NCBI GenBank assembly: GCA_963811165.1
Contig: CAWEQH010000001.1
Span: 448,001 to 512,000 of the forward strand
Source of the DNA: an uncultured Nitrospiraceae bacterium
GTDB lineage: Bacteria; Nitrospirota; Thermodesulfovibrionia; Thermodesulfovibrionales; UBA6898
Length of the DNA stretch: 64,000 bases
Direction: 5' to 3'
The translations under genes were made by a program, and so were the position numbers. Every line of letters begins with the position of its first letter. Position 1 is the stretch's first letter. Below are positions 31,366-43,021 of the stretch, piece by piece. The notes under the pieces are model-generated. The model saw only the letters and a list, made by a program, of their open reading frames with translations, was not told the DNA's origin and searched no databases.

Positions 31366-32298
31366 TTAAAGCCTACTATTTATAAGCTCTTTTTGTTCCC
31401 ATTCAAAGTTATCAGCTCTTATCGGCTGGGTATTCTGCAAAACAATCTTTATCGCTTTGAAGTAATCTCTCTGTACTTTGAGATTGGAGACTCTACAGTA
31501 ACATTGAGTTGTTGTAATCCGGCTGTGGCCCAATAGATCCTGTATGGTAACGAGATCGGCATCGGCGTTCAGGAGCTGTGTTGCCATAGTATGTCTAAGG
31601 TGATGACAGGATACCGCAGTCCCGGTCCTCTGTGCATAGTATTCAATCCTCTTTTGAATGCCGCGAACTGATATCGGCTTTCCCCTCAGCGGCCCCTTCT
31701 GCACTAAGAACACTCTTTTCTCCTTCGACCATTTCCGTTTCTGCATATACGCCTCTAAGGCACTCTGGGCATCTTCACTCAGGTAGACAACCCTGTCCTT
31801 GCTGCCTTTGCCATTGAAGACATAAAGCTGTCTGCTGCGATACTCTATCGCATCTACTGTCAGTCGTGCAACCTCTTCAACACGCAGACCACACCTGAGC
31901 ATTAGCATGAACATGGCTCGATCTCTGGTGTCATTGATCTCCCTAAAGAGAGTCACAATCTGTTCGTCTCTTAGATGTTTGGGCAATGGCCTGGGCAGAC
32001 GAAGCCTATAATTCTTTCTTACCGGATTGGTAAGAGGCATTCTCTCATCTTCGATCAGATAATCGTAGAAGGCATGGATGCAGCCGAAATGACAGTTGAT
32101 AGTCTTTGGTTTCATTCTCCTTCTCAATAGATGGTCCATATACGCATCGGTTTCTTTGTGGGTTATTTGCTCCAAAGAAACCTGCGACCAGACATTGAAG
32201 TGACCGAGGATATTCATGTAGTTTTTTACAGTGTTGGCCGAACAGTTCCTTCGCTTTAGGAACCTTCGGTACCTGGCAATCAAATCAGTAGGCCCCAT
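31366..32298 (-). CDS. Tyrosine recombinase/integrase (XerC/D-like) 2
   Basis: GLRVEE, GKGSKDR, HHLRH, LGH...Y catalytic set. Confidence 0.92.
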   Translation of the reverse strand: MGPTDLIARYRRFLKRRNCSANTVKNYMNILGHFNVWSQVSLEQITHKETDAYMDHLLRRRMKPKTINCHFGCIHAFYDYLIEDERMPLTNPVRKNYRLRLPRPLPKHLRDEQIVTLFREINDTRDRAMFMLMLRCGLRVEEVARLTVDAIEYRSRQLYVFNGKGSKDRVVYLSEDAQSALEAYMQKRKWSKEKRVFLVQKGPLRGKPISVRGIQKRIEYYAQRTGTAVSCHHLRHTMATQLLNADADLVTIQDLLGHSRITTTQCYCRVSNLKVQRDYFKAIKIVLQNTQPIRADNFEWEQKELINSRL

Positions 32299-33281
32299 TA
32301 ATGCCTCCTTGTTCGATGATTTCCATGGCACGGAAGTATTCCTCTTCGCGGCTCTTATCTGTCAGGCGGGCATATCGTCGGGTCATCTCTATGTCTCGAT
32401 GTCCCAACAGAAGTTGCAAGCATTCCAGGCGCATGCCGGCATTGAGCAGCTCGCTTGCGAAGGTATGCCGAAGGCTGTGGATTGTGTAGCCTTTGTGTTG
32501 GAGCCCTGTTTCTCTCAAGTATCGCGTGAAGATATTACGGGCCGAGGTATAACACAAGTGACTCCTCAGACCATGAAAGAGATATTCTTTTGTCTTATCT
32601 CTCTTTTTAAGCCAGAGCCCTAAGGCCATCAGTGCATCATCACTCAGATAAACCACTCGCCCAAGATAGTTCTTTTCGCCCTCATAGATATGTATCTTCC
32701 TCTCACGGACATCAAGATCTATCATCTTCAATCTGAGAAGCTCACCGATTCTCATGCCTGTCCGTAAGAGCACGAGGATCAGGGCACGGTCACGAATCTC
32801 CTTAATGACACCAAGAATCTTTCTGACATCGCCCGGCGCAATGGCCCTCGGCAGGAAATCCGGCACTTTGAGTTTTATCTTGCGTTTGAGTATGCGTCCG
32901 TCAATGATATCCTGTTCGATCAGAAAACGAAGAAAAGCAAAAAGGCAATGAAGCCGTGTTCTGACCGTGTTGATCTTAAGCCCCCGATCCTGCTCGCGTT
33001 CGACAAACGCCTCCAGGTCGTTACTGGCAATCGCCTCGATATGACTCTTCCCCTGGCCACCATAGAAAATGAGAAAGGAACTCACAGCGACGAAGCTGCC
33101 TTTAAGAGTACTTGGCCTGTGGTTCATTCTCCACTTGTTGCGCATGTAGCTATCAAAATGCTCTCTGGCGGGAAGGTCTAACTTGGAGATCCTCTGAAGA
33201 ATACGATCAATCGGGGGTCTGATAATTTACTACTTCTATGTCACTGACGATTGCCCTGAGAATTGAACCTGCTTTGGTCAT
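32285..33281 (-). CDS. Tyrosine recombinase/integrase 1 (apparent frameshift in G5 at 33213-33217)
   Basis: TGMRIGE, HSLRH, LGH...RRY. GGAGG RBS and ATG at 33281 join the main frame if one base of the G5 run is removed. Confidence 0.88.
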
Positions 33282-33479
33282 TGCTCCTCCTCTTTCTATT
33301 TGAAAAAGCAGGATTTATCATGACCCTCAGCGGTCCTAAGGTTCAATCCATTTTGTTACGTATAGCACCGATAACTAGTGATGTTTCATTTAATTGCGCC
33401 ACTGAAGATTATCTGGTGAGCCTTCCCCGAATTGATGGACACACCTAAAGATTTGTAAGATGGAAAAGGAGGTGTGTGT

Positions 33480-33782
33480 ATGGGGAAAGAGGATAGGCGT
33501 CGTCATTTCACGAGAGAGTTCAAGAGGAATGCTGTTCATCTTGTGACGGAGAAGGGTATGCCGGTAGGGAAGGTAGCTCGGGACCTTGATATTCATCCCA
33601 ACTTACTTCATTTATGGAGAAGGAGGTTGCTGAAAGACGGGGAGAAGGCATTTGTGGGGAAAGGCCATTCAAGTCCGGAGGGAGCGGAGATAAAGCAGCT
33701 TCGGAAGGAATTGGAAAGGGTGAGGGAAGAGAGGGACATTTTAAAAAAAGCCTTGGCCGTATTCTCCAAACGCAGCAGATGA
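33480..33782 (+). CDS. IS3 transposase OrfA (HTH)
   Basis: FTREFK..AV, VARDL, ERDILKKA; slippery A7G at 33743-33750. Confidence 0.9.
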   Translation: MGKEDRRRHFTREFKRNAVHLVTEKGMPVGKVARDLDIHPNLLHLWRRRLLKDGEKAFVGKGHSSPEGAEIKQLRKELERVREERDILKKALAVFSKRSR

Positions 33783-34635
33783 AGTACGGGTTGATGGAAG
33801 AGCATCGGGAGAAGTACAGGGTGGGAAGCATGTGCAAGGTGTTAAAGGTATCCAGGAGTGGGTATTATGCGTGGCGCAGCCGTCCGCTTAGCAGGAGGCA
33901 AAAGGACAACCAGGAGTTGCTGGGACACATACAGGAGATCCACAGAAGAAGCAGGAAGCTGTACGGGAGCCTAAGGATCACGGCTGAACTCAATGATGAG
34001 GGTGTCAAATGCGGGAAGAACCGGGTAGCCAGGATCATGAAGGATCATGCCATATGCGGGGAAGTGAAGAGGAGGAGGTTTAGGCGGACTACCGATTCAC
34101 GGCATGATTATGCTCTGGCGGCAAACCTGCTGATTGGCAAGAGACAGACCGATGGGGTATGGGCATCAGATATTACGTTTGTTCCTACTTCCGAGGGGTG
34201 GTTGTATGTGGCAGCTGTGATAAATGTGAAAAGCAGAAGAGTTATAGGGTTGTCCATGAGCGATAAACTTTCTCAGGAACTCGCCTCTGATGCGCTAAAA
34301 GCGGCAGCCAGCAGGCAGAGCCCTCCTGAGGGGTTGATCACCACTCCGATCGAGGCAGGCAGTACGCGAGTTATGCATATCAGGAGCTTCTCAGAGAATA
34401 CGGCATTACTCCGAGTATGAGCAGAAGTGGCAATTGCTATGACAATGCCTATGCGGAGTCATTTTTCGGAACGCTCAAGACGGAATTGGTCCACGGTGAG
34501 AAGTACCGTTCACGGCTTGAGGCAAGGCTTAGTATCTTTGAGTACGTAGAAGTGTTTTATAATCGTCAGAGGAGACACTCGGCATTAGGGTACAGGAGCC
34601 CAGAGCAATTTGAACGGCTCCTTGATGAAACTTAA
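33779..34635 (+). CDS. IS3 transposase OrfB (DDE), single-base deletion near 34339
   Basis: WASDIT; HSDRG.QY restored in the shifted frame; [16 protein letters not shown]. Confidence 0.88.
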
Positions 34636-34827
34636 CCAAGTGTCCACATTATCGGGGAAAGCTCATGGAGAAACAAACATAAAGAAGGGTGAGAGAAAAT
34701 CTCACGCCCTTTCTAGTACCATACAAACGAAATTTATAGTTACCACAGGTCTCAAGATTCTGTCTCAGTGTTATTCATATTTGTGATATAGTTTGTTATA
34801 TGGTATGCATACGGCTGAACGCATAGC

Positions 34828-35415
34828 ATGATGAGAGTGACTGAGAAACTCAAGAAATATGTGAAGAGGAGAGAAGCTGTTTTCTTTCTTATTCTGCTAA
34901 GTAGTTTATACAGTTGTATTGGGATTGGGAGGGAAAAAGGTATCCTTTACCCAACGGAGGAAAGGAAAAAACAAATCTTAACCTGGGCGACTTCTGAAAA
35001 AACCAAGGTGGATAGAGGGACACTCAAGAACAGCGAATACTGGAAACAGTTCTATCGAAAGTCGATTGAAATGAGACCCGACTTGGACGATTTCCTCTAT
35101 TTTGCAAACGAAATGATCAAGGTTTCGAGAATCTTTGAAGAAGGTAAGATAACGAAGGAACAATTTGAGGATAAACATCGCCAGCTAACTGCCCTTCTCG
35201 CTCGGGAAGAAAACAGACGCGCTCAGATGTTCTCTCTCTCCAGAATGAACGACTATGAAGCAGGAGTCTTTTATGCTTACCTTGGGAGTTTGTTTTTGGA
35301 CTATCTCAACGACCTTCAGAGGCAATTAAATGCGGCCGGGTCGCAATTCGAGAGCAGCCACTGTGCCTTTTTTGGGGACAGGATTCAATGCACTACTCAG
35401 GACTCGCCTTTTTGA
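34828..35415 (+). CDS. Hypothetical lipoprotein
   Basis: Lipobox LYSC; C-terminal CAFFGDRIQC. Confidence 0.65.
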   Translation: MMRVTEKLKKYVKRREAVFFLILLSSLYSCIGIGREKGILYPTEERKKQILTWATSEKTKVDRGTLKNSEYWKQFYRKSIEMRPDLDDFLYFANEMIKVSRIFEEGKITKEQFEDKHRQLTALLAREENRRAQMFSLSRMNDYEAGVFYAYLGSLFLDYLNDLQRQLNAAGSQFESSHCAFFGDRIQCTTQDSPF

Positions 35416-35622
35416 ATTAGGGTCCTGAGGGTAGCATATTTTCCGGGGTCGACAATTGGCCGGGGCGATGCCCAGCGTTATCTAATACTACACATACTCT
35501 TAATCGATGGGGCCAGCACCGAACAATTATTTCAAAAGGAACCTCACGCCAATGTCAAAGATCGCCGGTGTAGAGTACAGCAGTCATTAAGACAGGGCGT
35601 GATTCCCCCGATCGCATAGTAC

Positions 35623-36678
35623 TTACATATTGCCCTCATGATCATGATGCTGCATAGGCTGTCCTCCCCCGCCGGTATGCCCGAGATGGGAGGCATGGCG
35701 TGCAGGTATCTCGTGCCGGAGTAAGGCAGCGCACAATAGTACGCCGATTATCAGAATTGCCTCGACTTTTACGCCTCGCCTGAACCGCGAGGCGATCCGG
35801 CCCCCGTTTCCACCCGGCTGAAGGCCTGGAAAGAACTGAAGCGCGATGCGGGTGAAAATTCCCCGACCTTCTGGGGAGGCCCCTGCCCATTCCTGCAGGA
35901 GCGGGACGCTGACATACCTATTGAAGCCGCCGAGATTTATGAGGACAAGGAAGAGCACGACCTTCGCTATGACGGTCCAGCCGTAAGGCGACCCTAGTAA
36001 CGCGTGTATGCTCCCCACATATTTCCACGCGTTATAGAGCGCGGTAATTGCGACTATGCCGACTGCAAAGCCGGCCAGCGACGAGAACCTGCCTGCAACT
36101 CTTGAGATCAGGGCAGGGGTAGGCTCTCTCCGCCCTATGAGATCAGGAAGAACAGAGACGGAAAGCACCATGAGACCGCCTCCCCACACCGACGCTGCAA
36201 GCAGATGGAGCCAGTCCATTATCTCCGGCAGGCTTAAATCACCTGCATCGGATGCGTGCCCGGAGGCGCTTGCCGTCATAGCGACTACCAGTCCGAGGAG
36301 GAGCATGAAAAACAGGAACACCCGTGTATCACGATATCGCACAGCCATTTTCGAAAGCGCCAGCAGGAAGAGTGCCCCAATGCGGACGATCCAGACGCTT
36401 CCATAGTGGGTCCGGAAGAGGACAGTAGGCAAGACCGAAAAAAAAGCAGGAAAGGGTTGGCCGCTCATCTCAGCCGTCCTCGAAAACAGCTCGACTATGC
36501 TTCCTGCGATCAGGAAGGCCAGCCCGAAACAAAACAACGTCCACATCCTCGGGACGAAATTCTCCTGATATGAAAATTCGTCTTGAATCGAAGGCGTAAA
36601 AAACCAGAGACGGCAGACGATCACCCCGATACAAAAGGCAAGGGATATGAGTTCTAACCATTCGGGAATAACATGCAT
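35623..36678 (-). CDS. copD: CopD-family copper transport membrane protein with His-rich tail
   Basis: SGHA, HLLAASVWGGGL, YGW....K; C-terminal HASHLGH...HHDH. Confidence 0.88.
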   Translation of the reverse strand: MHVIPEWLELISLAFCIGVIVCRLWFFTPSIQDEFSYQENFVPRMWTLFCFGLAFLIAGSIVELFSRTAEMSGQPFPAFFSVLPTVLFRTHYGSVWIVRIGALFLLALSKMAVRYRDTRVFLFFMLLLGLVVAMTASASGHASDAGDLSLPEIMDWLHLLAASVWGGGLMVLSVSVLPDLIGRREPTPALISRVAGRFSSLAGFAVGIVAITALYNAWKYVGSIHALLGSPYGWTVIAKVVLFLVLINLGGFNRYVSVPLLQEWAGASPEGRGIFTRIALQFFPGLQPGGNGGRIASRFRRGVKVEAILIIGVLLCAALLRHEIPARHASHLGHTGGGGQPMQHHDHEGNM

Positions 36679-36725
36679 TGACCTCTCACCTCCTGATAAT
36701 ATCTCTTCTTCAGCCTCTTATCACC

Positions 36726-37101
36726 TCATTTTATTGAGAATGAGAACTGTCCGTTCGTCCTGTGCCCATCCCTTGCCACAACGTTCCAGATCACAAGATA
36801 CGTACCCGGCGGCAACTGGGGAAGACTCACCTCAAGTAATTTAGGATCAGCAGGGTCCACATGGTTGTTCCTCTTGTCGATCATCTTGCCGTCGGCATTA
36901 TGCACCATAAGGGTCGAGAATGCCGGCTCCAGATCGCTGTCAAACCAGATGCGGACCTGAGCGGGCGAGCCCGAAACAGTCGAGCCCACCTTAGGGTCCG
37001 AATGGTCCGGGAATGCATGACCCCACGCCGCCCCGGGCAGGACGCGGCAGAAAGACCAGGCAAAAAAACGCAATAGCAGGCCTGATATTTACGGGGCGCA
37101 T
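36726..37101 (-). CDS. copC: CopC periplasmic copper-binding protein (apparent frameshift in the signal peptide near 37045)
   Basis: Mature N-terminus HA...S.P and WNVVARDGH; ATG at 37101 is one base out of frame. Confidence 0.88.
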
Positions 37102-37107
37102 TGAGCT

Positions 37108-38077
37108 TTACCTGAAGATAGGCCTGCCGAGACTTTTTGGGAAGAGATCATCAACATACAGATGGACCAGTCCGAGGAGGCCGACGCTGCTCCCTGATCG
37201 AGAGTTTACCGGGATCTGCGCGGCGATCCCAAACTCCATGAACTTGCCCGCCCATACTATCCCTGGGTTCACTGTTCCTGAAATTTGTCCCTTGCAAGTC
37301 GGCGTTCATGCAAGTTTCCATCGGGAACTCCGCCACTAGTATCATTCGGTTAAACGGGGCGCCGAGCCCGATATCTTTTACAAAGGATTGAAGGTACATG
37401 AGACTGTACTGTAAGGAGAATGCCCAGTTCAGAGTCGTGGGGTTTCGTTCCACTATTGTTTCTCCGGTGTCGGGATCTATAGAAACGTTGCCGGATCTCG
37501 TGGGGAAACTGGGGCCGATGACCCCGGTAATTGCAAATGGCCTGAAAAATCCCATCGACGCCGGCAAGTCGCCGAACCCTTTGCCGAAGAAAAGAGCCGG
37601 GGAAATCGTTGTGAAAGAATCGGCTATCTGGTGTGCCCCGGTGCCGCCGATGTCGAAGTCTGTGCCGACTGAAAGGATCAGCTCATGGGGAGCATTCGTA
37701 AGGAACTGCCATTTCGCCCCTATCCCGAGATTGTCCCAGCCATTGGCCGAGCTGCCGTCGGTTGCCCTCTGGTGCAGGTAGGCCTCATGGAATTCGAGCC
37801 CGAAGTTGGGCACGATGCGTTTGGAATAATCGATATCGATTTCCGTGGTCGTCGCGTCTGGTCCCTTTGCACGATTAATCAGTATAGAGAACTCATCCGA
37901 AATGAACGGATCATCCACCTGAAACGTCGTGGGGAAAAACCTCTGTCCTGCAAACCCGTGGGCCCATGACGATGCGGGCGCAAAAAGTACGAACAACAGT
38001 GTAAGGCCGAATACCTTGCGCAATATATCCATTCCGGAGTTTCTGCTATTTCCCGCACTCTCTGCTATTTCCCTCAT
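37108..38077 (-). CDS. Exported, probably outer-membrane beta-barrel protein (apparent frameshift near 37297)
   Basis: Signal ASSWA|HGFAGQRFFP; alternating beta-strand pattern; the C-terminus ...VHLYVDDLFPKSLGRPIFR* is in the shifted frame. Confidence 0.7.
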
Positions 38078-38170
38078 TTATTCCTCCCAAAGGCTATTAT
38101 AGAAGTATATCACCTAATTGTGACACGGTCTATCGCAGCGCGTAAAAAGGACCATGCTCAGAAACAGTGC

Positions 38171-39715
38171 CTAAAACATTACTTGAACGCCGGCATTAAG
38201 CACCCATGTGGTTTTCATTTGAAGGCCGTTAAGGTTTTGATAGACCGGCACTCCGCCTTCAACTCCGAAGCTGAGGGAGCCCTTCTGAAGGCTCAACCCG
38301 ATCAGACCATCCAGCCTCTGCCCGCCATAGTTGTTTGGGTCGGCATCAGGCGTGGGCGCACCCATGCCCATCCCCATTACAGGATGGATGAGCTTGTCGA
38401 TCTCGGGGTCCTGTCCCTTGATCCGGCCCGTGTCGTTATAAGCAAGCCGCACCCAGGTGCTTAGCGGGCCGAAGGCGCGCTGCAGCCAGCCAGTCGCCTT
38501 AAAGTTGTCGCCGAGGCTGTAATCGTTTTTATTCTTATCTATATGATAGGTGTACATGGCCTGAGCACCCCAGTTCCATTTTGCGTCATCGCTGAGGGCA
38601 CTGTAAGTGAGAGCGGGTTTCAGATCGTATGTGCCTGAGCCCAGCTGCATGTCATAGGGTGCGCGATATACCTTGCGCATCATCACTATGGGTTGGTCGA
38701 TGTCGCCGGTCGGAAGGCTGAGACCGAGGCTGCCGTTAAGGTATTTATTGATCTTGTAAATCCCTCTAAGTTCGGTGTCGCCAAGGCCGCGGGTACTCAT
38801 GGGGTCCTCGCGAGTGATCATCCTGCCTGGGCCCATGTCCATCAGCATTCCCATCGAGTTGACCTGATAATTTGCCATGGCCATCACGGTCAACCGGTCG
38901 GTGATCCCGTACATCAGCATAAACATATGCATATCCATGGTCATGTCGGTAGGTATCATCATGTAATTATACGGCTTGCCCCTATTGTATCCGACGCTGT
39001 CCGGGCCGACGTCCGACGTGCCGGAACGCAGGCCGCTCATATTCATGTGCATGAGCTTGTAGGTCACCATCCACATCCCGGCCGGATGGGTGTGGTATAT
39101 GTCGTCGCCAAATGCCGGGTTGAACAGCATCTGGGAGCCCGGCTCCATTGCCATATGACACATGTCATGACCCATGTGCCCATGATGATCGTGGGCCATC
39201 TCCGCACTCCCTTCCACTTCTTCCTTCGCGGCCTTCATCGCCTGGTCGAAGGAGGATACTTTGCCTCCATTTTCCTTTACGAATTTCTGCGCATCTTCCT
39301 CCTTTATGAATGCCCATTTTGGTACGGAGGTCATGACACCTTCTTTATTGCCGCCGATTACCCAGGTTGCGGTTTTGGCATCTGTCAATTCTTTGGAAGT
39401 GTAATCCGCAACCATAAGCGTCTTGACCTGCTTGTCCTTGTTTTGTTTCATTTCTGCAGCTGCACAGTGGATACTGCAGACCTCAGCGGTGGATCCGTCT
39501 TCATAGCCAATCACCATCCTGCTTTTCGCATAAACGTCCAGGTCCATCCCGCATTGCTTGCAGTGTTTGGGATTCTCTGCCGTATCGGCTGCTCCTGCAG
39601 CAGTGAAACTCAACAGCAGGCAAAAAACCAAAAATATCACGAATCTTTTCACAAGGGACTTTTTATTAAGGGTATAGGCAAAAGATGACGCAAAGAGTGT
39701 TTTTGACCTAGTCAT
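38171..39715 (-). CDS. NosL-like domain + His/Met-rich linker + putative outer-membrane beta-barrel
   Basis: CKQCGM, CSIHC and GVMT are NosL-like; linker MAHDHHGHMGHDMCHMAM; HTHPAG.WM, GLGD, SLPTG, MQLGSGTYD; terminal Phe. Confidence 0.75.
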   Translation of the reverse strand: MTRSKTLFASSFAYTLNKKSLVKRFVIFLVFCLLLSFTAAGAADTAENPKHCKQCGMDLDVYAKSRMVIGYEDGSTAEVCSIHCAAAEMKQNKDKQVKTLMVADYTSKELTDAKTATWVIGGNKEGVMTSVPKWAFIKEEDAQKFVKENGGKVSSFDQAMKAAKEEVEGSAEMAHDHHGHMGHDMCHMAMEPGSQMLFNPAFGDDIYHTHPAGMWMVTYKLMHMNMSGLRSGTSDVGPDSVGYNRGKPYNYMMIPTDMTMDMHMFMLMYGITDRLTVMAMANYQVNSMGMLMDMGPGRMITREDPMSTRGLGDTELRGIYKINKYLNGSLGLSLPTGDIDQPIVMMRKVYRAPYDMQLGSGTYDLKPALTYSALSDDAKWNWGAQAMYTYHIDKNKNDYSLGDNFKATGWLQRAFGPLSTWVRLAYNDTGRIKGQDPEIDKLIHPVMGMGMGAPTPDADPNNYGGQRLDGLIGLSLQKGSLSFGVEGGVPVYQNLNGLQMKTTWVLNAGVQVMF

Positions 39716-39820
39716 ATAATAGGATCTCCTTTTCTTAACAGACAGTAAAGAGCATTTTTGACGCTCCTCACTCCTCTATATTTGGAAAAAGCTGCGAATC
39801 GAAGACTTCGGAACTTCGGG

Positions 39821-40108
39821 TCAGGACTTGGGAGGGCGTTCTATTTGGACAAAATACCAGGATGGGGAAAAATACATATTGTCGGGTTCTCTATATTCTG
39901 CAAACTGTAACGGACAGTCCGTGCAGGAAGATTCATACAGGCAAGGAATCTCCGGATTGGCTGATATGAAGGACCCCGAAGCATTGCAAACATCGAGCGA
40001 CGCAATGCACTTCACCTGATTGTGCGAGGCGATAGTAACATGGGCCGTAATCGGCGATAACATCGAAACAACCAGAGCCACGATTATCCACATGCCGCTT
40101 GATCGCAT
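39821..40108 (-). CDS. DUF2946/CruR/CutF-like Cys-rich exported leader protein
   Basis: Signal-like N-terminus, CTDC, C-terminal ERPPKS; first gene of the copper operon. Confidence 0.7.
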   Translation of the reverse strand: MRSSGMWIIVALVVSMLSPITAHVTIASHNQVKCIASLDVCNASGSFISANPEIPCLYESSCTDCPLQFAEYREPDNMYFSPSWYFVQIERPPKS

Positions 40109-40113
40109 ATTTT

Positions 40114-40141
40114 ATTATCCCCGGATATAAAACTATGTCAA
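40114..40141 (-). promoter_or_regulatory. sigma70-type promoter with an internal palindrome
   Basis: Bottom strand TTGACA-N16-GATAAT; TATCC-CC-GGATA at 40116-40127. Confidence 0.45.
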
Positions 40142-40303
40142 CGTCAAATTATATTTATGAGGTGTTCTTGCAGAGATAAGTCAATGGATCACCCAGAATT
40201 ACCTTATCCCCCCTCCGGCGGCAAGCGTGCAGGGGGCGGCTTCCGCGCCATTACGAAAAACGATCCTTGATTTTCATCCGGATTACCCATAAAATTAAAC
40301 GCC

Positions 40304-42172
40304 ATGGAAATCAAGATACTAAACGGCAAAACTATACCGGCCGGTGACGGCGAAAGCATCTATAAGGCCTTGAAGGACCACGGGGTCTATCTCGTTGCCT
40401 CGTGCGGAGGCAAGGGCGTCTGCGGGAAGTGCCGTGTGAAGGTACTGGAAGGCGAGACGAGGATCGAATCTGCGGGCAAACTTCTGAAAAAGGATATTGA
40501 GGAGAATATTGTCCTTGCATGCCAGGGCTTTCCCAAGGGTGATATCCTTATTGATATACCGGAGGATTCAAAGCTTATTATCGGTGACAAAATCGCGTTG
40601 TCGAAAACAAAGGATTTGCTGCAGTATCTTCGGACCGTCGAGCCGGCGGTTACTTCCGCCATACGCAGGGTTGTCCTGAACCTTACACCCCCTTCACTCC
40701 AGGACAATACCGGCGACCTCGAACGGCTGAAAAGGGCGCTCCACGAAAAAGGCATCTTTGACATGGAATTTTCCCACAGTTTTATCCTCTCGATGCCGAA
40801 TATTCTCAGGGAGGCTGAATGGGATGTCTGTCTTAGCTATACGGAAAAACACGAGGCAATAGGTCTTTCAGCGGTCTGTAAGACAAAACACTATGGGATT
40901 GCCGTGGATATAGGAACGACAACTGTGGTGCTGTATCTGGTGAACTGTTCGGACGGCACACTTGTTGATGCGGGTATGACCTTTAATTCGCAGATGCGCC
41001 ACGGCGACGACGTGATCACTCGGATTGTCTATGCAACAGAGGGAGGAGGCCTTCAGGAGCTGAGAGACACCATCGTGGATGATATAAATGGCCTCCTTGC
41101 CCCGATTGTAGAAAAAAATAATATCGACATTGAAGATATTGACTCTGCCGTCATTTCGGGGAATACGACAATGACACAGCTCTTCTGGGGGCTGGACCCC
41201 TCTTCGATCAGGGAAGAGCCCTACATCCCGACGGTCAATATCTATCCCGTGTGGAGGGCCGGGACGGCCCGCTTTAAAATAAACCCTCAGGGGCCGGTCT
41301 ATACCATGCCGAACGTGGGTAGTTATGTGGGAGGAGACATCGTGGCAGGGGTCCTGGCCTCCAAGATGCACAAGAATCCTGAAGTTGCCCTGTTCATGGA
41401 CATAGGAACAAACGGCGAAATCGCCGTCGGCAACAATGAGTGGATGATCACGGCCGCATGTTCTATGGGACCTTGCTTCGAGGGCAGCGGCATACGGCAC
41501 GGCATGAGGGCGACGGAGGGTGCGATTGAGTCGGTGAAGATAGACCTTTCGAGTTTCGAGCCGGCCCTCGGCGTCATCGGCGGGGTCTCACCTTCGGGCA
41601 TCTGCGGTTCCGGAATGATTGACGCCATCTCCGAACTTTTTTTTGCCGGGGTGATAGACCAGAAGGGCAAACTTGTTAAAGACCTTGATACGGACAGAAT
41701 CAGGACGGGTGAGGAAGGGCCGGAATTTGTCCTCCACCGCGGTGACCGTAAGGACATCGTTCTTACCGAGGTCGACATCGAAAACGTTATCCGCGCAAAG
41801 GCCGCCCTTTATGCAGGTGTGTCTGTGCTCCTGAAGGAGGTCGGGCTTTCTTTGGACATCGTCGAGAGAATATATATCGCCGGGGGCTTCGGCAATTATC
41901 TCGACGTCAACAAGGCGATCATGATCGGCATGCTGCCCGACATCCCGCTTGAGAAGTTTTCATTTATAGGGAATACCTCGATCGCCGGCGCATACCTCTG
42001 TCTGCTATCCGAAAAGATGCGGACCGAGGCCCAGGAGACCGCGAAAAAGATGACGTATGTAGAGCTCTCTGCCTCGAGGGGGTTCATGGACGAATACATG
42101 TCTGCCCTTTTCCTTCCCCATACCAATATCGAACTCTTCCCCACTGTCAGGGACCTGTATAAGAAGAAATAA
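40304..42172 (+). CDS. ASKHA/DUF4445 reductive activator of corrinoid proteins (RACo/AcsV-like) with [2Fe-2S] domain
   Basis: CGGKGVCGKC...LAC, DIGTTT, DIGTNGE, GICGSG, AGGFG. Confidence 0.9.
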   Translation: MEIKILNGKTIPAGDGESIYKALKDHGVYLVASCGGKGVCGKCRVKVLEGETRIESAGKLLKKDIEENIVLACQGFPKGDILIDIPEDSKLIIGDKIALSKTKDLLQYLRTVEPAVTSAIRRVVLNLTPPSLQDNTGDLERLKRALHEKGIFDMEFSHSFILSMPNILREAEWDVCLSYTEKHEAIGLSAVCKTKHYGIAVDIGTTTVVLYLVNCSDGTLVDAGMTFNSQMRHGDDVITRIVYATEGGGLQELRDTIVDDINGLLAPIVEKNNIDIEDIDSAVISGNTTMTQLFWGLDPSSIREEPYIPTVNIYPVWRAGTARFKINPQGPVYTMPNVGSYVGGDIVAGVLASKMHKNPEVALFMDIGTNGEIAVGNNEWMITAACSMGPCFEGSGIRHGMRATEGAIESVKIDLSSFEPALGVIGGVSPSGICGSGMIDAISELFFAGVIDQKGKLVKDLDTDRIRTGEEGPEFVLHRGDRKDIVLTEVDIENVIRAKAALYAGVSVLLKEVGLSLDIVERIYIAGGFGNYLDVNKAIMIGMLPDIPLEKFSFIGNTSIAGAYLCLLSEKMRTEAQETAKKMTYVELSASRGFMDEYMSALFLPHTNIELFPTVRDLYKKK

Positions 42173-43021
42173 TCACAGGTTGACCAGCACGTTGTCTATC
42201 AGGCGGACATCCCCCATCCTGACCGCCACTGCAAGAAGGAGCTCTTTCCTGACCTCATCGGTTTCATCCAATGTTTCGGCGTCGTACACAGATGCATATT
42301 CTATTTTTGTGACGAGTCTCTCTCCGGCGAGCATCTCGCGCATGAGTTCCCTGGTCTTTGCCGGGGTATGAGTTCCCGACCGCAGAGCTTCAGATGCATT
42401 GCTGAGGCACCGGTGTAATACGGTCGCAGCGTGCCGCTGTTGACTGTCGAGGAAAAGGTTCCGGGAACTCATTGCAAGCCCGTCCTGCTCCCGGATGGTC
42501 GGGCAGACGACTATCTCAACGTCGAGGTCAAGGTCTTTTACCATCCTTCTTATGACGGCGGTCTGCTGAAAGTCTTTCTGTCCGAAATAGGCCCTCGTGG
42601 GGTCTGTAATATTGAGAAGTTTCGCAACGACCGTCGTAACGCCCCTGAAATGTCCGGGCCTGAAGGCCCCGCACAGTTTCCCGGATATATTTTCAACCTC
42701 GACATAGGTAGCGAAATTTTTAGGGTACATCAGAGCGCTATCAGGCAGGAATAGGATATCGACTTCCTGCTCGCGGAGTTTCCTGATGTCGTTTTCGGTG
42801 TCTCTTGGATATCTATCAAGGTCTTCGGAAGGGCCGAACTGTGTCGGGTTAAGAAAAATGCTCACTGCCGAGATGTCATTTTCCGTCCTGGCCCTTTTTA
42901 TCAGGCTTATATGTCCTTCATGAAGGGCGCCCATTGTTGGGACCAGTCCCAACGATCTTCCTTTTAATAAATATTTCTTGCAGGTGTCTTGCATGATGCG
43001 CGGTATCCTAATGATCTCCAT
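42173..43021 (-). CDS. panC: Pantoate--beta-alanine ligase
   Basis: VPTMGALHEGH, RPGHF.GV, FGQKD, AMSSRN, RLIDN. Confidence 0.96.
   Translation of the reverse strand: MEIIRIPRIMQDTCKKYLLKGRSLGLVPTMGALHEGHISLIKRARTENDISAVSIFLNPTQFGPSEDLDRYPRDTENDIRKLREQEVDILFLPDSALMYPKNFATYVEVENISGKLCGAFRPGHFRGVTTVVAKLLNITDPTRAYFGQKDFQQTAVIRRMVKDLDLDVEIVVCPTIREQDGLAMSSRNLFLDSQQRHAATVLHRCLSNASEALRSGTHTPAKTRELMREMLAGERLVTKIEYASVYDAETLDETDEVRKELLLAVAVRMGDVRLIDNVLVNL

Follow-up and report, generated by a model that had tools for sequence, protein, structure and literature searches.

The described systems that come closest in function to the locus reported here are pcuABCDE, the CopB/PcoB-CopC-CopD set and the CruR-TonB receptor operon. 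For the outer-membrane passage of copper, the pertinent sections of a 2020 review list porins, TonB-dependent transporters and chalkophores only (PMC7558416). Passage that involves neither a TonB-dependent receptor nor a chalkophore is poorly defined. The locus lies in a 64,000-nucleotide (nt) stretch of DNA from an uncultured Nitrospiraceae bacterium (contig CAWEQH010000001.1, positions 448,001 to 512,000), hereafter the window, to which all coordinates refer unless a locus or genome is named. Five open reading frames (ORFs) are arranged head-to-tail on the minus strand (35623-40108), in the order leader, NosL-barrel, barrel2, copC and copD. An initial annotation had interpreted them as a copper-import relay, encoded by five co-oriented genes and devoid of a TonB-dependent receptor, an oxidase and a P-type ATPase. 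Orientation and gene content are as it stated. According to the ORF list and Pfam, none of these three is encoded within the five-gene cluster, and neither a resistance-nodulation-division (RND) pump, nor an ATPase, nor nos genes are found there. We consider it probable that this is a copper cluster of two modules, with copper entering through two barrels and being passed on to CopC and CopD for import.

The pcuABCDE operon of Bradyrhizobium japonicum/diazoefficiens resembles the cluster as a copper-acquisition operon headed by a CruR homologue (a passage in PMC9426467). It codes for the periplasmic copper chaperone PcuC, which is a PCuAC protein (a passage in PMC6669012), and for PcuD, a YcnI homologue (a passage in PMC8424229). 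The operon serves cytochrome oxidase biogenesis. In the 2012 work of Serventi, PcuB is reported to be a receptor of the TonB-dependent type, and PcuE is reported to be a membrane protein that resembles YcnJ/CopCD. The cluster in the window differs in that the outer-membrane step is attributed to two small 12-stranded barrels without plug/TonB-box architecture. Its chaperone is NosL, fused to a barrel, CopC and CopD are encoded by separate genes, and the leader belongs to another sequence clade. In copABCD/pcoABCD, as in the window, copC and copD come after the gene for an outer-membrane barrel. PcoB is regarded as a protein for copper uptake in the outer membrane, with CopCD carrying out the step from the periplasm to the cytoplasm (a passage in PMC13374858). 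Neither barrel in the window has a Pfam match to CopB (PF05275), and PcoB (7pge_B) is only at rank 15 in the structure search with barrel2, with a Z score of 12.5 as compared to 21.8 for FapF. The cluster also lacks a CopA multicopper oxidase, and barrel2 has a mature N-terminal His in place of the Met/His-rich N-terminal region.

Both barrels resemble the COG4313 channel Pput2725 (4rl8) and FapF (5o65), which also have 12 strands and an N-terminal segment before the first strand. Barrel2 has, however, no detectable sequence relation to them, and that of the fusion is borderline. For the known members of COG4313 and FapF, the links are to amyloid secretion or hydrophobic substrates, and none to metals is known. 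We know of no chaperone fusions described for them. NosL from nos clusters (7og7, 7osf) is homologous to the fused domain over its whole length, with a conserved CxxCGM motif. It has a lipoprotein anchor and is encoded together with nosZ and nosDFY (a passage in PMC7558416), whereas the fusion is not a lipoprotein, is not encoded beside nosZ/nosDFY and is covalently tied to an outer-membrane barrel. A description of either barrel family as a copper protein was not found in the literature searched. The parts of the supplements of PMC9973294 and PMC9426467 that were covered have no entries for PF13557, NosL or Nitrospir*; the neighbour list of PMC9973294 (File S1) is probably outside this scope. 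The initial annotation did not know the combination as a described system, but it has described functional analogues in pcuABCDE and CopB-CopCD. The cluster is distinct from the described systems by an outer-membrane step that is assigned to two unrelated small barrel families of the FapF/COG4313 type, and by its leader clade.

The NosL-barrel gene (38171-39715, minus strand) codes for a protein of 514 residues with Pfam matches to NosL and Phenol_MetA_deg. The NosL domain (PF05573, residues 48-159, positions 39239-39574) is assigned with E 2.9e-16 and 60.4 bits (cut-off 24). It contains C52xxC55GM and C80xxxC84. The match to Phenol_MetA_deg (PF13557) in the C-terminal half is borderline (E 1.3e-4, 22.5 bits, cut-off 22), and several relatives of the fusion score 26-34 bits. 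A profile of the fusion family matches solved NosL structures across the whole domain (7og7, E 4.4e-12; 7osf, E 2e-10), and its CxxCGM aligns to DECHVCGM of 7osf. In 33 fusion sequences, the invariant residues include C52, C55, H210 and 14 methionines, and G56 and M57 are conserved in at least 90%. By eye, the N-terminus looks like an ordinary signal peptide that ends with AGA in front of AD, without a lipobox Cys. An AlphaFold model from the 33-sequence alignment has a mean pLDDT (predicted local distance difference test) of 81, with values mostly above 85 in the barrel. The signal peptide is followed by the NosL domain, a His/Met-rich linker that is predicted to be disordered (residues 170-194, 39134-39208, pLDDT below 50) and the barrel. 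The latter part (residues 195-514; 38171-39133 including the stop codon) comprises a conserved His/Met segment (NPAFGDDIYHTHPAGMWM) and a Met-rich barrel of 12 strands. Foldseek relates it to FapF (E 4.8e-12) and to the COG4313 channel 4rl8 (E 1.2e-11, TMt 0.75). Methionine accounts for 9.7% of its residues. In the strands 253-270 and 275-292, Met is found at alternate positions, with F, L, Y, A or V on the opposite side, and this Met ladder may face the lumen.

The fusion family comprises 1914 matches at E <=0.001 among 7307 candidates. The best 120 of these all carry PF05573 and, where named, are called "NosL" or "hypothetical protein". Homologues consisting only of the barrel (30-42% identical) occur in Alpha- and Gammaproteobacteria, Verrucomicrobiota, Myxococcota and one cyanobacterium, and they retain the motifs DMTMDMHM and GHAPIGVMGDHxH. 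The Met-rich barrel is fused to NosL in the loci L001-L021 and L024, while it is fused to PCuAC in both Thiothrix-like loci scanned (L071, L078). These independent fusions to two copper chaperones are the strongest argument that the Met-rich barrel works on copper, and the fusion would indicate which periplasmic partner receives the metal. In L033, a DUF2946 gene (E 3.8e-6) stands in front of the gene of the Met-rich barrel. Genes that recur near the fusion in relatives are those for FtrD-like, C_GCAxxG, YtkA-like, MauG-like peroxidase and SCO1 proteins. Those for SCO1, YtkA-like, MauG-like and FtrD-like proteins are of the biogenesis type.

Two further gene sets were seen near fusions in relatives. 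In L006, L008, L009, L019 and L020, a MacB-type ABC transporter (FtsX and ABC_tran), DUF4418 and one or two stand-alone NosL genes are encoded close to the fusion; this is possibly a second NosL-dependent metal module. In L015, the region between the NosL-barrel gene and barrel2-copCD (L015:2478-6576) codes for an FtrD-like protein, two YtkA-like proteins and a MauG/MbnH-like di-haem peroxidase. It may be an extended copper cluster that resembles uptake loci of the MbnPH type.

The gene for barrel2 (37108-38077, minus strand), which we also refer to as the His1 barrel, is split in the window into an ORF of 308 residues (37151-38077) and one of 54 residues (37108-37272). An intact orthologue (L001:8603-9553) is 90% identical to the barrel2 of the window over residues 34-263. 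With this orthologue as query, 2392 relatives are obtained at E <=0.001 among 4746 candidates. The family has 1386 representatives at 50% clustering, and these include Gammaproteobacteria, Nitrospiria and Nitrospinota. Barrel2 has no Pfam match, PF13557 included. None of the best 120 relatives has a Pfam domain and, where named, they are called "hypothetical protein". In the protein Atlas, the family is found in unnamed clusters; the nearest named cluster (score 0.96) has PF13557 on 39% of its members. The model of the L001 orthologue has a pLDDT of 92.8 and a predicted TM-score (pTM) of 0.82. Its closest matches in a structure search (VIA) are FapF (Z 21.8, root-mean-square deviation (rmsd) 2.8 over 234 residues) and 4rl8 (Z 20.7, rmsd 2.7 over 225 residues). 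A solved relative that is detectable by sequence was not found. Neither was similarity detected between the two barrel families (hhalign probability 0.6%). Both are confidently predicted to fold as 12-stranded outer-membrane barrels of the FapF/COG4313 type, in agreement with their initial assignment as beta-barrels. In 77 of 98 divergent barrel2 representatives, the mature chain begins with His behind an A-x-A cleavage site, and G-x-R-x-F-P and DDP..DE motifs come after this position. The polar residues that are conserved are carboxylates; there are few further conserved His, Met or Cys residues. In 28 of the 30 Nitrospirota loci fetched, copC and copD directly follow barrel2. With 1914 and 2392 matches, the two barrel families are concrete candidates for a TonB-independent copper step.

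The copC gene (36726-37101, minus strand) has its mature protein from His19 of the ORF 36726-37073 onwards. CopC is assigned by PF04234 (E 9.8e-22, 78.2 bits, cut-off 23.3) and by similarity to the CopC structure 6nfq (E 8.4e-15). The copD gene (35623-36678, minus strand) codes for 351 residues with a His-rich C-terminal tail and matches PF05425 (E 4e-21, 75.8 bits, cut-off 32.1). NCBIfam names only these two proteins of the cluster, and both stay below the respective equivalog cut-off (71.7 vs. 95 bits for CopC; 119.7 vs. 195 bits for copper_CopD). The residues H29, D112 and H114 of CopC (L001 numbering), which make up the Cu(II) site of His1 and DxH, are invariant in 15 sequences. The His-rich tail was found in all 15 CopD sequences examined. 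Most of the copper ligands named in the initial annotation are confirmed: the CxxCGM motif and the His/Met linker of the fusion, the His that follows the signal peptide of barrel2, the His motifs of CopC and the His tail of CopD. The window CopD ends after its His-rich tail. In many relatives (L099, L102, L107, L110; L011:10560-11975), CopD continues past this tail into an extra C-terminal domain, which in L011 is YtkA-like, as in Bacillus YcnJ.

A complex of mature barrel2 and mature CopC (both from L001) was predicted with a score of 0.71 (0.70, 0.71 and 0.77 in the individual runs). The best of three controls scored 0.09. The mark for this score is reached by 116 of 157 solved complexes and by 2 of 215 mismatched pairs, counts that are approximate here, with our own alignments supplied. 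At least 95% of the contacts agree between runs, and the partner pLDDT is 92. On the CopC side, the interface comprises residues 29, 31-35, 38-41, 112-114 and 116-121, which includes the His1/Asp/His copper site. On the barrel2 side, it comprises residues 36-41 (just after His34), 221-229 and 301-308. In such barrels, both termini are periplasmic. Memory of a known complex is unlikely because barrel2 has no solved relative by sequence. By this prediction, CopC would dock through its copper site to both terminal segments of barrel2. The result supports binding and names the residues at the contact.

The leader ORF (39821-40108, minus strand, 95 residues) is likely to encode a nascent-chain copper sensor of the CutF/CruR type. 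According to passages in PMC9426467 and PMC9973294, CruR and CutF (DUF2946) are small upstream ORFs of the exported type, with a Cys motif through which the nascent chain senses copper. The ribosome is stalled by a RAPP or Pro-rich motif at the C-terminus (the same sources in part, and bioRxiv 2025.02.05.636593). The window leader shares with CruR (Bp2923, Bordetella pertussis) and CutF (Rhodobacter capsulatus) that a small protein of the exported type heads a copper operon. Also in common is the fixed distance between a conserved Cys and a C-terminal Pro-Pro motif, which resembles an arrest motif and is located 2-3 residues before the stop codon. By the operational definition of CutF-like ORFs (PMC9973294), the leader belongs to this type: it has 95 residues (below 150), PP at positions 92-93, a downstream gene that shares its strand and lies at a distance of 105 nt, and an N-terminal 12-mer with a Kyte-Doolittle hydrophobicity above 1.8. 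The spacer to the NosL-barrel gene (39716-39820) contains a 12-bp hairpin and a ribosome site (AAGGAG).

In the family alignment, the N-terminus of leader homologues is hydrophobic, and the Cys of (T/A)LD(V/I/L)C[H/N..] is invariant. The C-terminus carries [ED][RH]PP with another 2-3 residues after it. L38, C41, P92 and P93 are invariant. In the window leader, these motifs read LDVC[N/H] with Cys41, and ERPPKS. The CxxC that the initial annotation took for a copper ligand (C62-T-D-C65) is not conserved; the only invariant Cys is C41. When counted by hand, the distance from Cys to the first Pro is exactly 50 residues in 17 of 17 members with x[RH]PP, and 48-49 residues in two YPPP members. The spacing of 50 is kept although pairwise leader identity drops to about 25%. 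In CruR, the spacing from CXXC to RAPP is also conserved, at 45 residues (45 +/- 2; a passage in PMC9426467), and to the equivalent position it is 48 in the window leader. Differences to CruR/CutF are the single Cys in LDVC[H/N] in place of CXXC or CxxxC, [ED][RH]PP in place of RAPP, a missing PF11162 match and the host phylum, Nitrospirota. The leader would extend copper sensing of the CutF/CruR type to this phylum, with an exact spacing rule. Leader-like ORFs are found upstream of 13 of the 22 NosL or NosL-barrel hits and 8 of the 31 barrel2 hits in the loci examined. In L089, a leader directly heads barrel2-copC-copD.

The five genes had been taken for one system, which has to be given up. 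The cluster consists of two separable modules, one being the leader with the NosL-barrel, the other being barrel2-copC-copD. Among 21 fusion-centred loci, barrel2-copC-copD is adjacent in L001 and L002, about 0.7 kb off in L011 and 4.3 kb off in L015, and it is absent from the flanks of the other 17. Of 401 genomes sampled from the phylum, 13 have a full-length fusion, two have split copies and one has a partial copy at a contig end (16 in total). The barrel2 family is present in 65. Both occur together only in G000, G330 and G344, which is 3 of the 16 genomes with the fusion and 3 of the 65 with barrel2. The cluster in the window is a juxtaposition of two mobile modules, each able to carry its own leader.

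In the proposed mechanism, copper would cross the outer membrane through the two 12-stranded barrels, independent of TonB. In the first module, the methionines of the Met-rich barrel may line the lumen and conduct Cu(I), which would be taken up in the periplasm by the tethered NosL domain. In the second module, CopC with its Cu(II) site is predicted to dock on the periplasmic terminal segments of the His1 barrel. CopC would then hand copper to CopD and thereby to the cytoplasm, as may be expected from published work on CopCD, YcnJ and YebZ. The leader has its Cys 50 residues before the C-terminal PP, and a ribosome pausing at PP could tune the downstream genes. The case for a link to copper is strong. 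Dedication to copper is deduced from the chaperone fusions, the copC-copD synteny in 28 of 30 loci, the CutF/CruR-like leader and the predicted interface between barrel2 and CopC. The direction, import, is inferred. CopCD homologues are regarded as importers in passages of PMC7558416, PMC11923076 and PMC13374858, NosL is described as a Cu(I) chaperone (part of PMC7558416), and the initial annotation likewise took both roles as established. A role in supply is probable and one in detoxification improbable, because the genome has a copper demand and a separate efflux, CopCD are regarded as importers, and NosL and PCuAC deliver copper to enzymes (passages in PMC7558416 and PMC6669012). A more specific version is speculative and, in our view, rather doubtful. 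In this version, the barrels are two unrecognised TonB-independent copper pores, one with a Met ladder and with NosL or PCuAC tethered to it as Cu(I) chaperone, the other with His1 and carboxylates, docking CopC and feeding CopD. Both would be under the control of a new clade of nascent-peptide sensors with a 50-residue ruler from Cys to PP.

The relatives of the cluster proteins come from metagenome-assembled genomes of Nitrospirota/Thermodesulfovibrionales. The host genome (3.66 Mb, 10 contigs) is 95% complete. It codes for a haem-copper oxidase: the gene for COX1 (506 bits) has an SCO1-like gene and UbiA as neighbours, and genes for COX2 and a second COX1-like protein are present as well. 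The initial designation of the host as an anaerobe needs to be qualified in view of COX1 and COX2. Also encoded are an HMA-bearing P-type ATPase, a CopZ-like protein and three additional NosL proteins. By its gene content, the genome has a copper demand and an efflux pump separate from the cluster. For sulfate-reducing Nitrospirota that are uncultured, the cluster points to a managed copper supply for the haem-copper oxidase. About 5 kb away from the gene of the HMA-bearing P-type ATPase is a second gene for a CopD-like protein (G000:C8:434135-435142; L121:6135-7142, minus strand), which carries a haem domain of the cytochrome b5 type as a fusion.

Several observations weigh against the supply of copper through two barrels as outlined above. 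The orientation of the Met ladder towards the lumen is read from residue alternation. The two modules are mostly apart and have no detectable sequence similarity to each other. The window leader has no Pfam match, and none to PF11162 (DUF2946) even at E 10, and only one of ten members of its family does (E 0.0043). The family lacks the conserved CXXC/CxxxC of DUF2946, and a comparison with proteobacterial small ORFs is not significant (hhalign probability 0.7%). Folding of the spacer between leader and barrel is not significant either (minimum free energy z -1.6), and no consensus pairs were found in 7 relatives; since structure is neither significant nor conserved, we do not claim a masking stem-loop of the CutF type. 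CutF-like ORFs precede efflux or detoxification genes most often (a passage in PMC9973294). An IS3 element and two integrase genes adjoin the cluster directly downstream, and the genes are accessory, with a patchy distribution (65 and 16 of 401 genomes) like that of resistance islands. These last points would fit a copper tolerance device, in which the barrels release or sequester periplasmic Cu(I)/Cu(II) and copper in the periplasm is collected by NosL and CopC, as was proposed historically for CopB, CopC and CopD. Like CutF in the case of CutO, the leader would turn on the genes in response to rising copper. Met/His-rich outer-membrane proteins do belong to cop/pco resistance operons (a passage in PMC7558416). 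We consider tolerance unlikely, however, since the cluster has neither an RND pump nor an ATPase, and the host genome has 0 matches to the multicopper oxidase family PF07732 (at 95% completeness; the control was positive in 6 of 14 genomes). Published evidence favours CopCD as importers, NosL and PCuAC are chaperones for cofactor delivery, and the neighbours in relatives (SCO1, YtkA-like, MauG-like) speak against tolerance. PcoB itself is now described as facilitating uptake (by a title cited in PMC13374858). It is highly improbable that the barrels act as general channels of the COG4313 type, with small hydrophobic molecules as substrates, and that their link to copper genes is incidental. 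The closest solved folds, 4rl8 and FapF, and the Pfam name of the matched family, which refers to phenol degradation, would agree with this, but evidence against it comes from independent fusions to two unrelated copper chaperones, the 14 invariant Met with an invariant His in the fusion family, the barrel2-copCD synteny, the conserved mature His1, the specific CopC-barrel2 interface that is predicted, and the DUF2946-type leaders upstream of barrels.

Frame breaks in barrel2 and copC also count against supply by both modules. In the window, barrel2 is deprived of its last 60 or so residues, among them 272 and 301-308 of the CopC contact, and copC of its ATG. By tblastn, the 308-residue ORF matches orthologues up to about residue 263, followed by about 50 out-of-frame residues. 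The true C-terminus is on the 54-residue ORF, and it is in frame in L001, L002, L011 and L015. The second barrel gene of the initial annotation is present, but its ORF as read ends out of frame. Relative to all four intact orthologues, there is one extra base at 37298/37299 (GACTTGC vs. GA-TTGC or GAC-TGT). In copC, a normal signal peptide (MRPVNIRPAIAFF...) begins at the ancestral ATG (37101), but its frame is off by one base relative to that of the mature protein. The extra base is most simply placed in the T7 run at 37062-37068. In 29 copC orthologues, the signal peptide is in one frame, mostly 23-32 residues before His1. Programmed frameshifting in barrel2 was considered and rejected, with orthologues in one frame and the second insertion in a signal-peptide region.

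As assembled, the second module may be inactive or mis-assembled. The chances of real decay and of a long-read indel error are close to even, and we rate it slightly below an even chance that barrel2 and copC are a decaying pseudogene pair. In that case, both extra bases exist in the genome, barrel2 is cut short, translation or export of copC is poor, and only the leader and NosL-barrel, perhaps with copD, still work. This would agree with two +1 insertions within 240 bp (37298/9 and 37062-37068), while about 4.7 kb of RACo, leader, NosL-barrel and copD align to L001 without a frame break. It would also agree with mobile elements next to the cluster. Two contigs of related strains (93% and 96% alike) span 37298/9 and lack the extra base; no related contig spans 37057-37158. 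Barrel2 is split or contains stop codons in other genomes as well, in at least 5 of the 65 carriers (G212:C6, G251:C19, G218:C7, G095:C1 and G209:C12). On the other hand, a run of seven T is a classic site of long-read error, the source is an assembly of 10 contigs with 3.66 Mb, the IS3 transposase likewise has an extra frame break, and no contig that is at least 99% alike spans either insertion site.

Some further features were noted around the cluster. A promoter-like site (TTGACA-16-GATAAT, 11/12) is found at 40114-40141 on the minus strand, directly upstream of the leader ORF, and a second one (10/12) at 38096-38124 on the same strand, in the 93-nt spacer before barrel2. Both are assigned by position only, and such sites are not enriched in the region (6 vs. 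5.3 in shuffles). No Rfam family was found within 33000-42500. Downstream of copD are a lipoprotein-like ORF without a name, the IS3 element and the two integrase genes. The latter are tandem tyrosine-recombinase genes (31366-33145, minus strand) beside the IS3 element. The IS3-family transposase (33474-34635, plus strand) has its orfB split into the ORFs 33614-34420 and 34417-34635, which is beyond the usual orfA/orfB offset. The split may be either a mobile-element scar or the result of further assembly indel errors. Divergent from the leader, a RACo/AcsV-type corrinoid reductive activase is encoded (40304-42172, plus strand; 661.6 bits, under the NCBIfam cut-off of 800). This neighbour is also retained in L001, L002 and L007.

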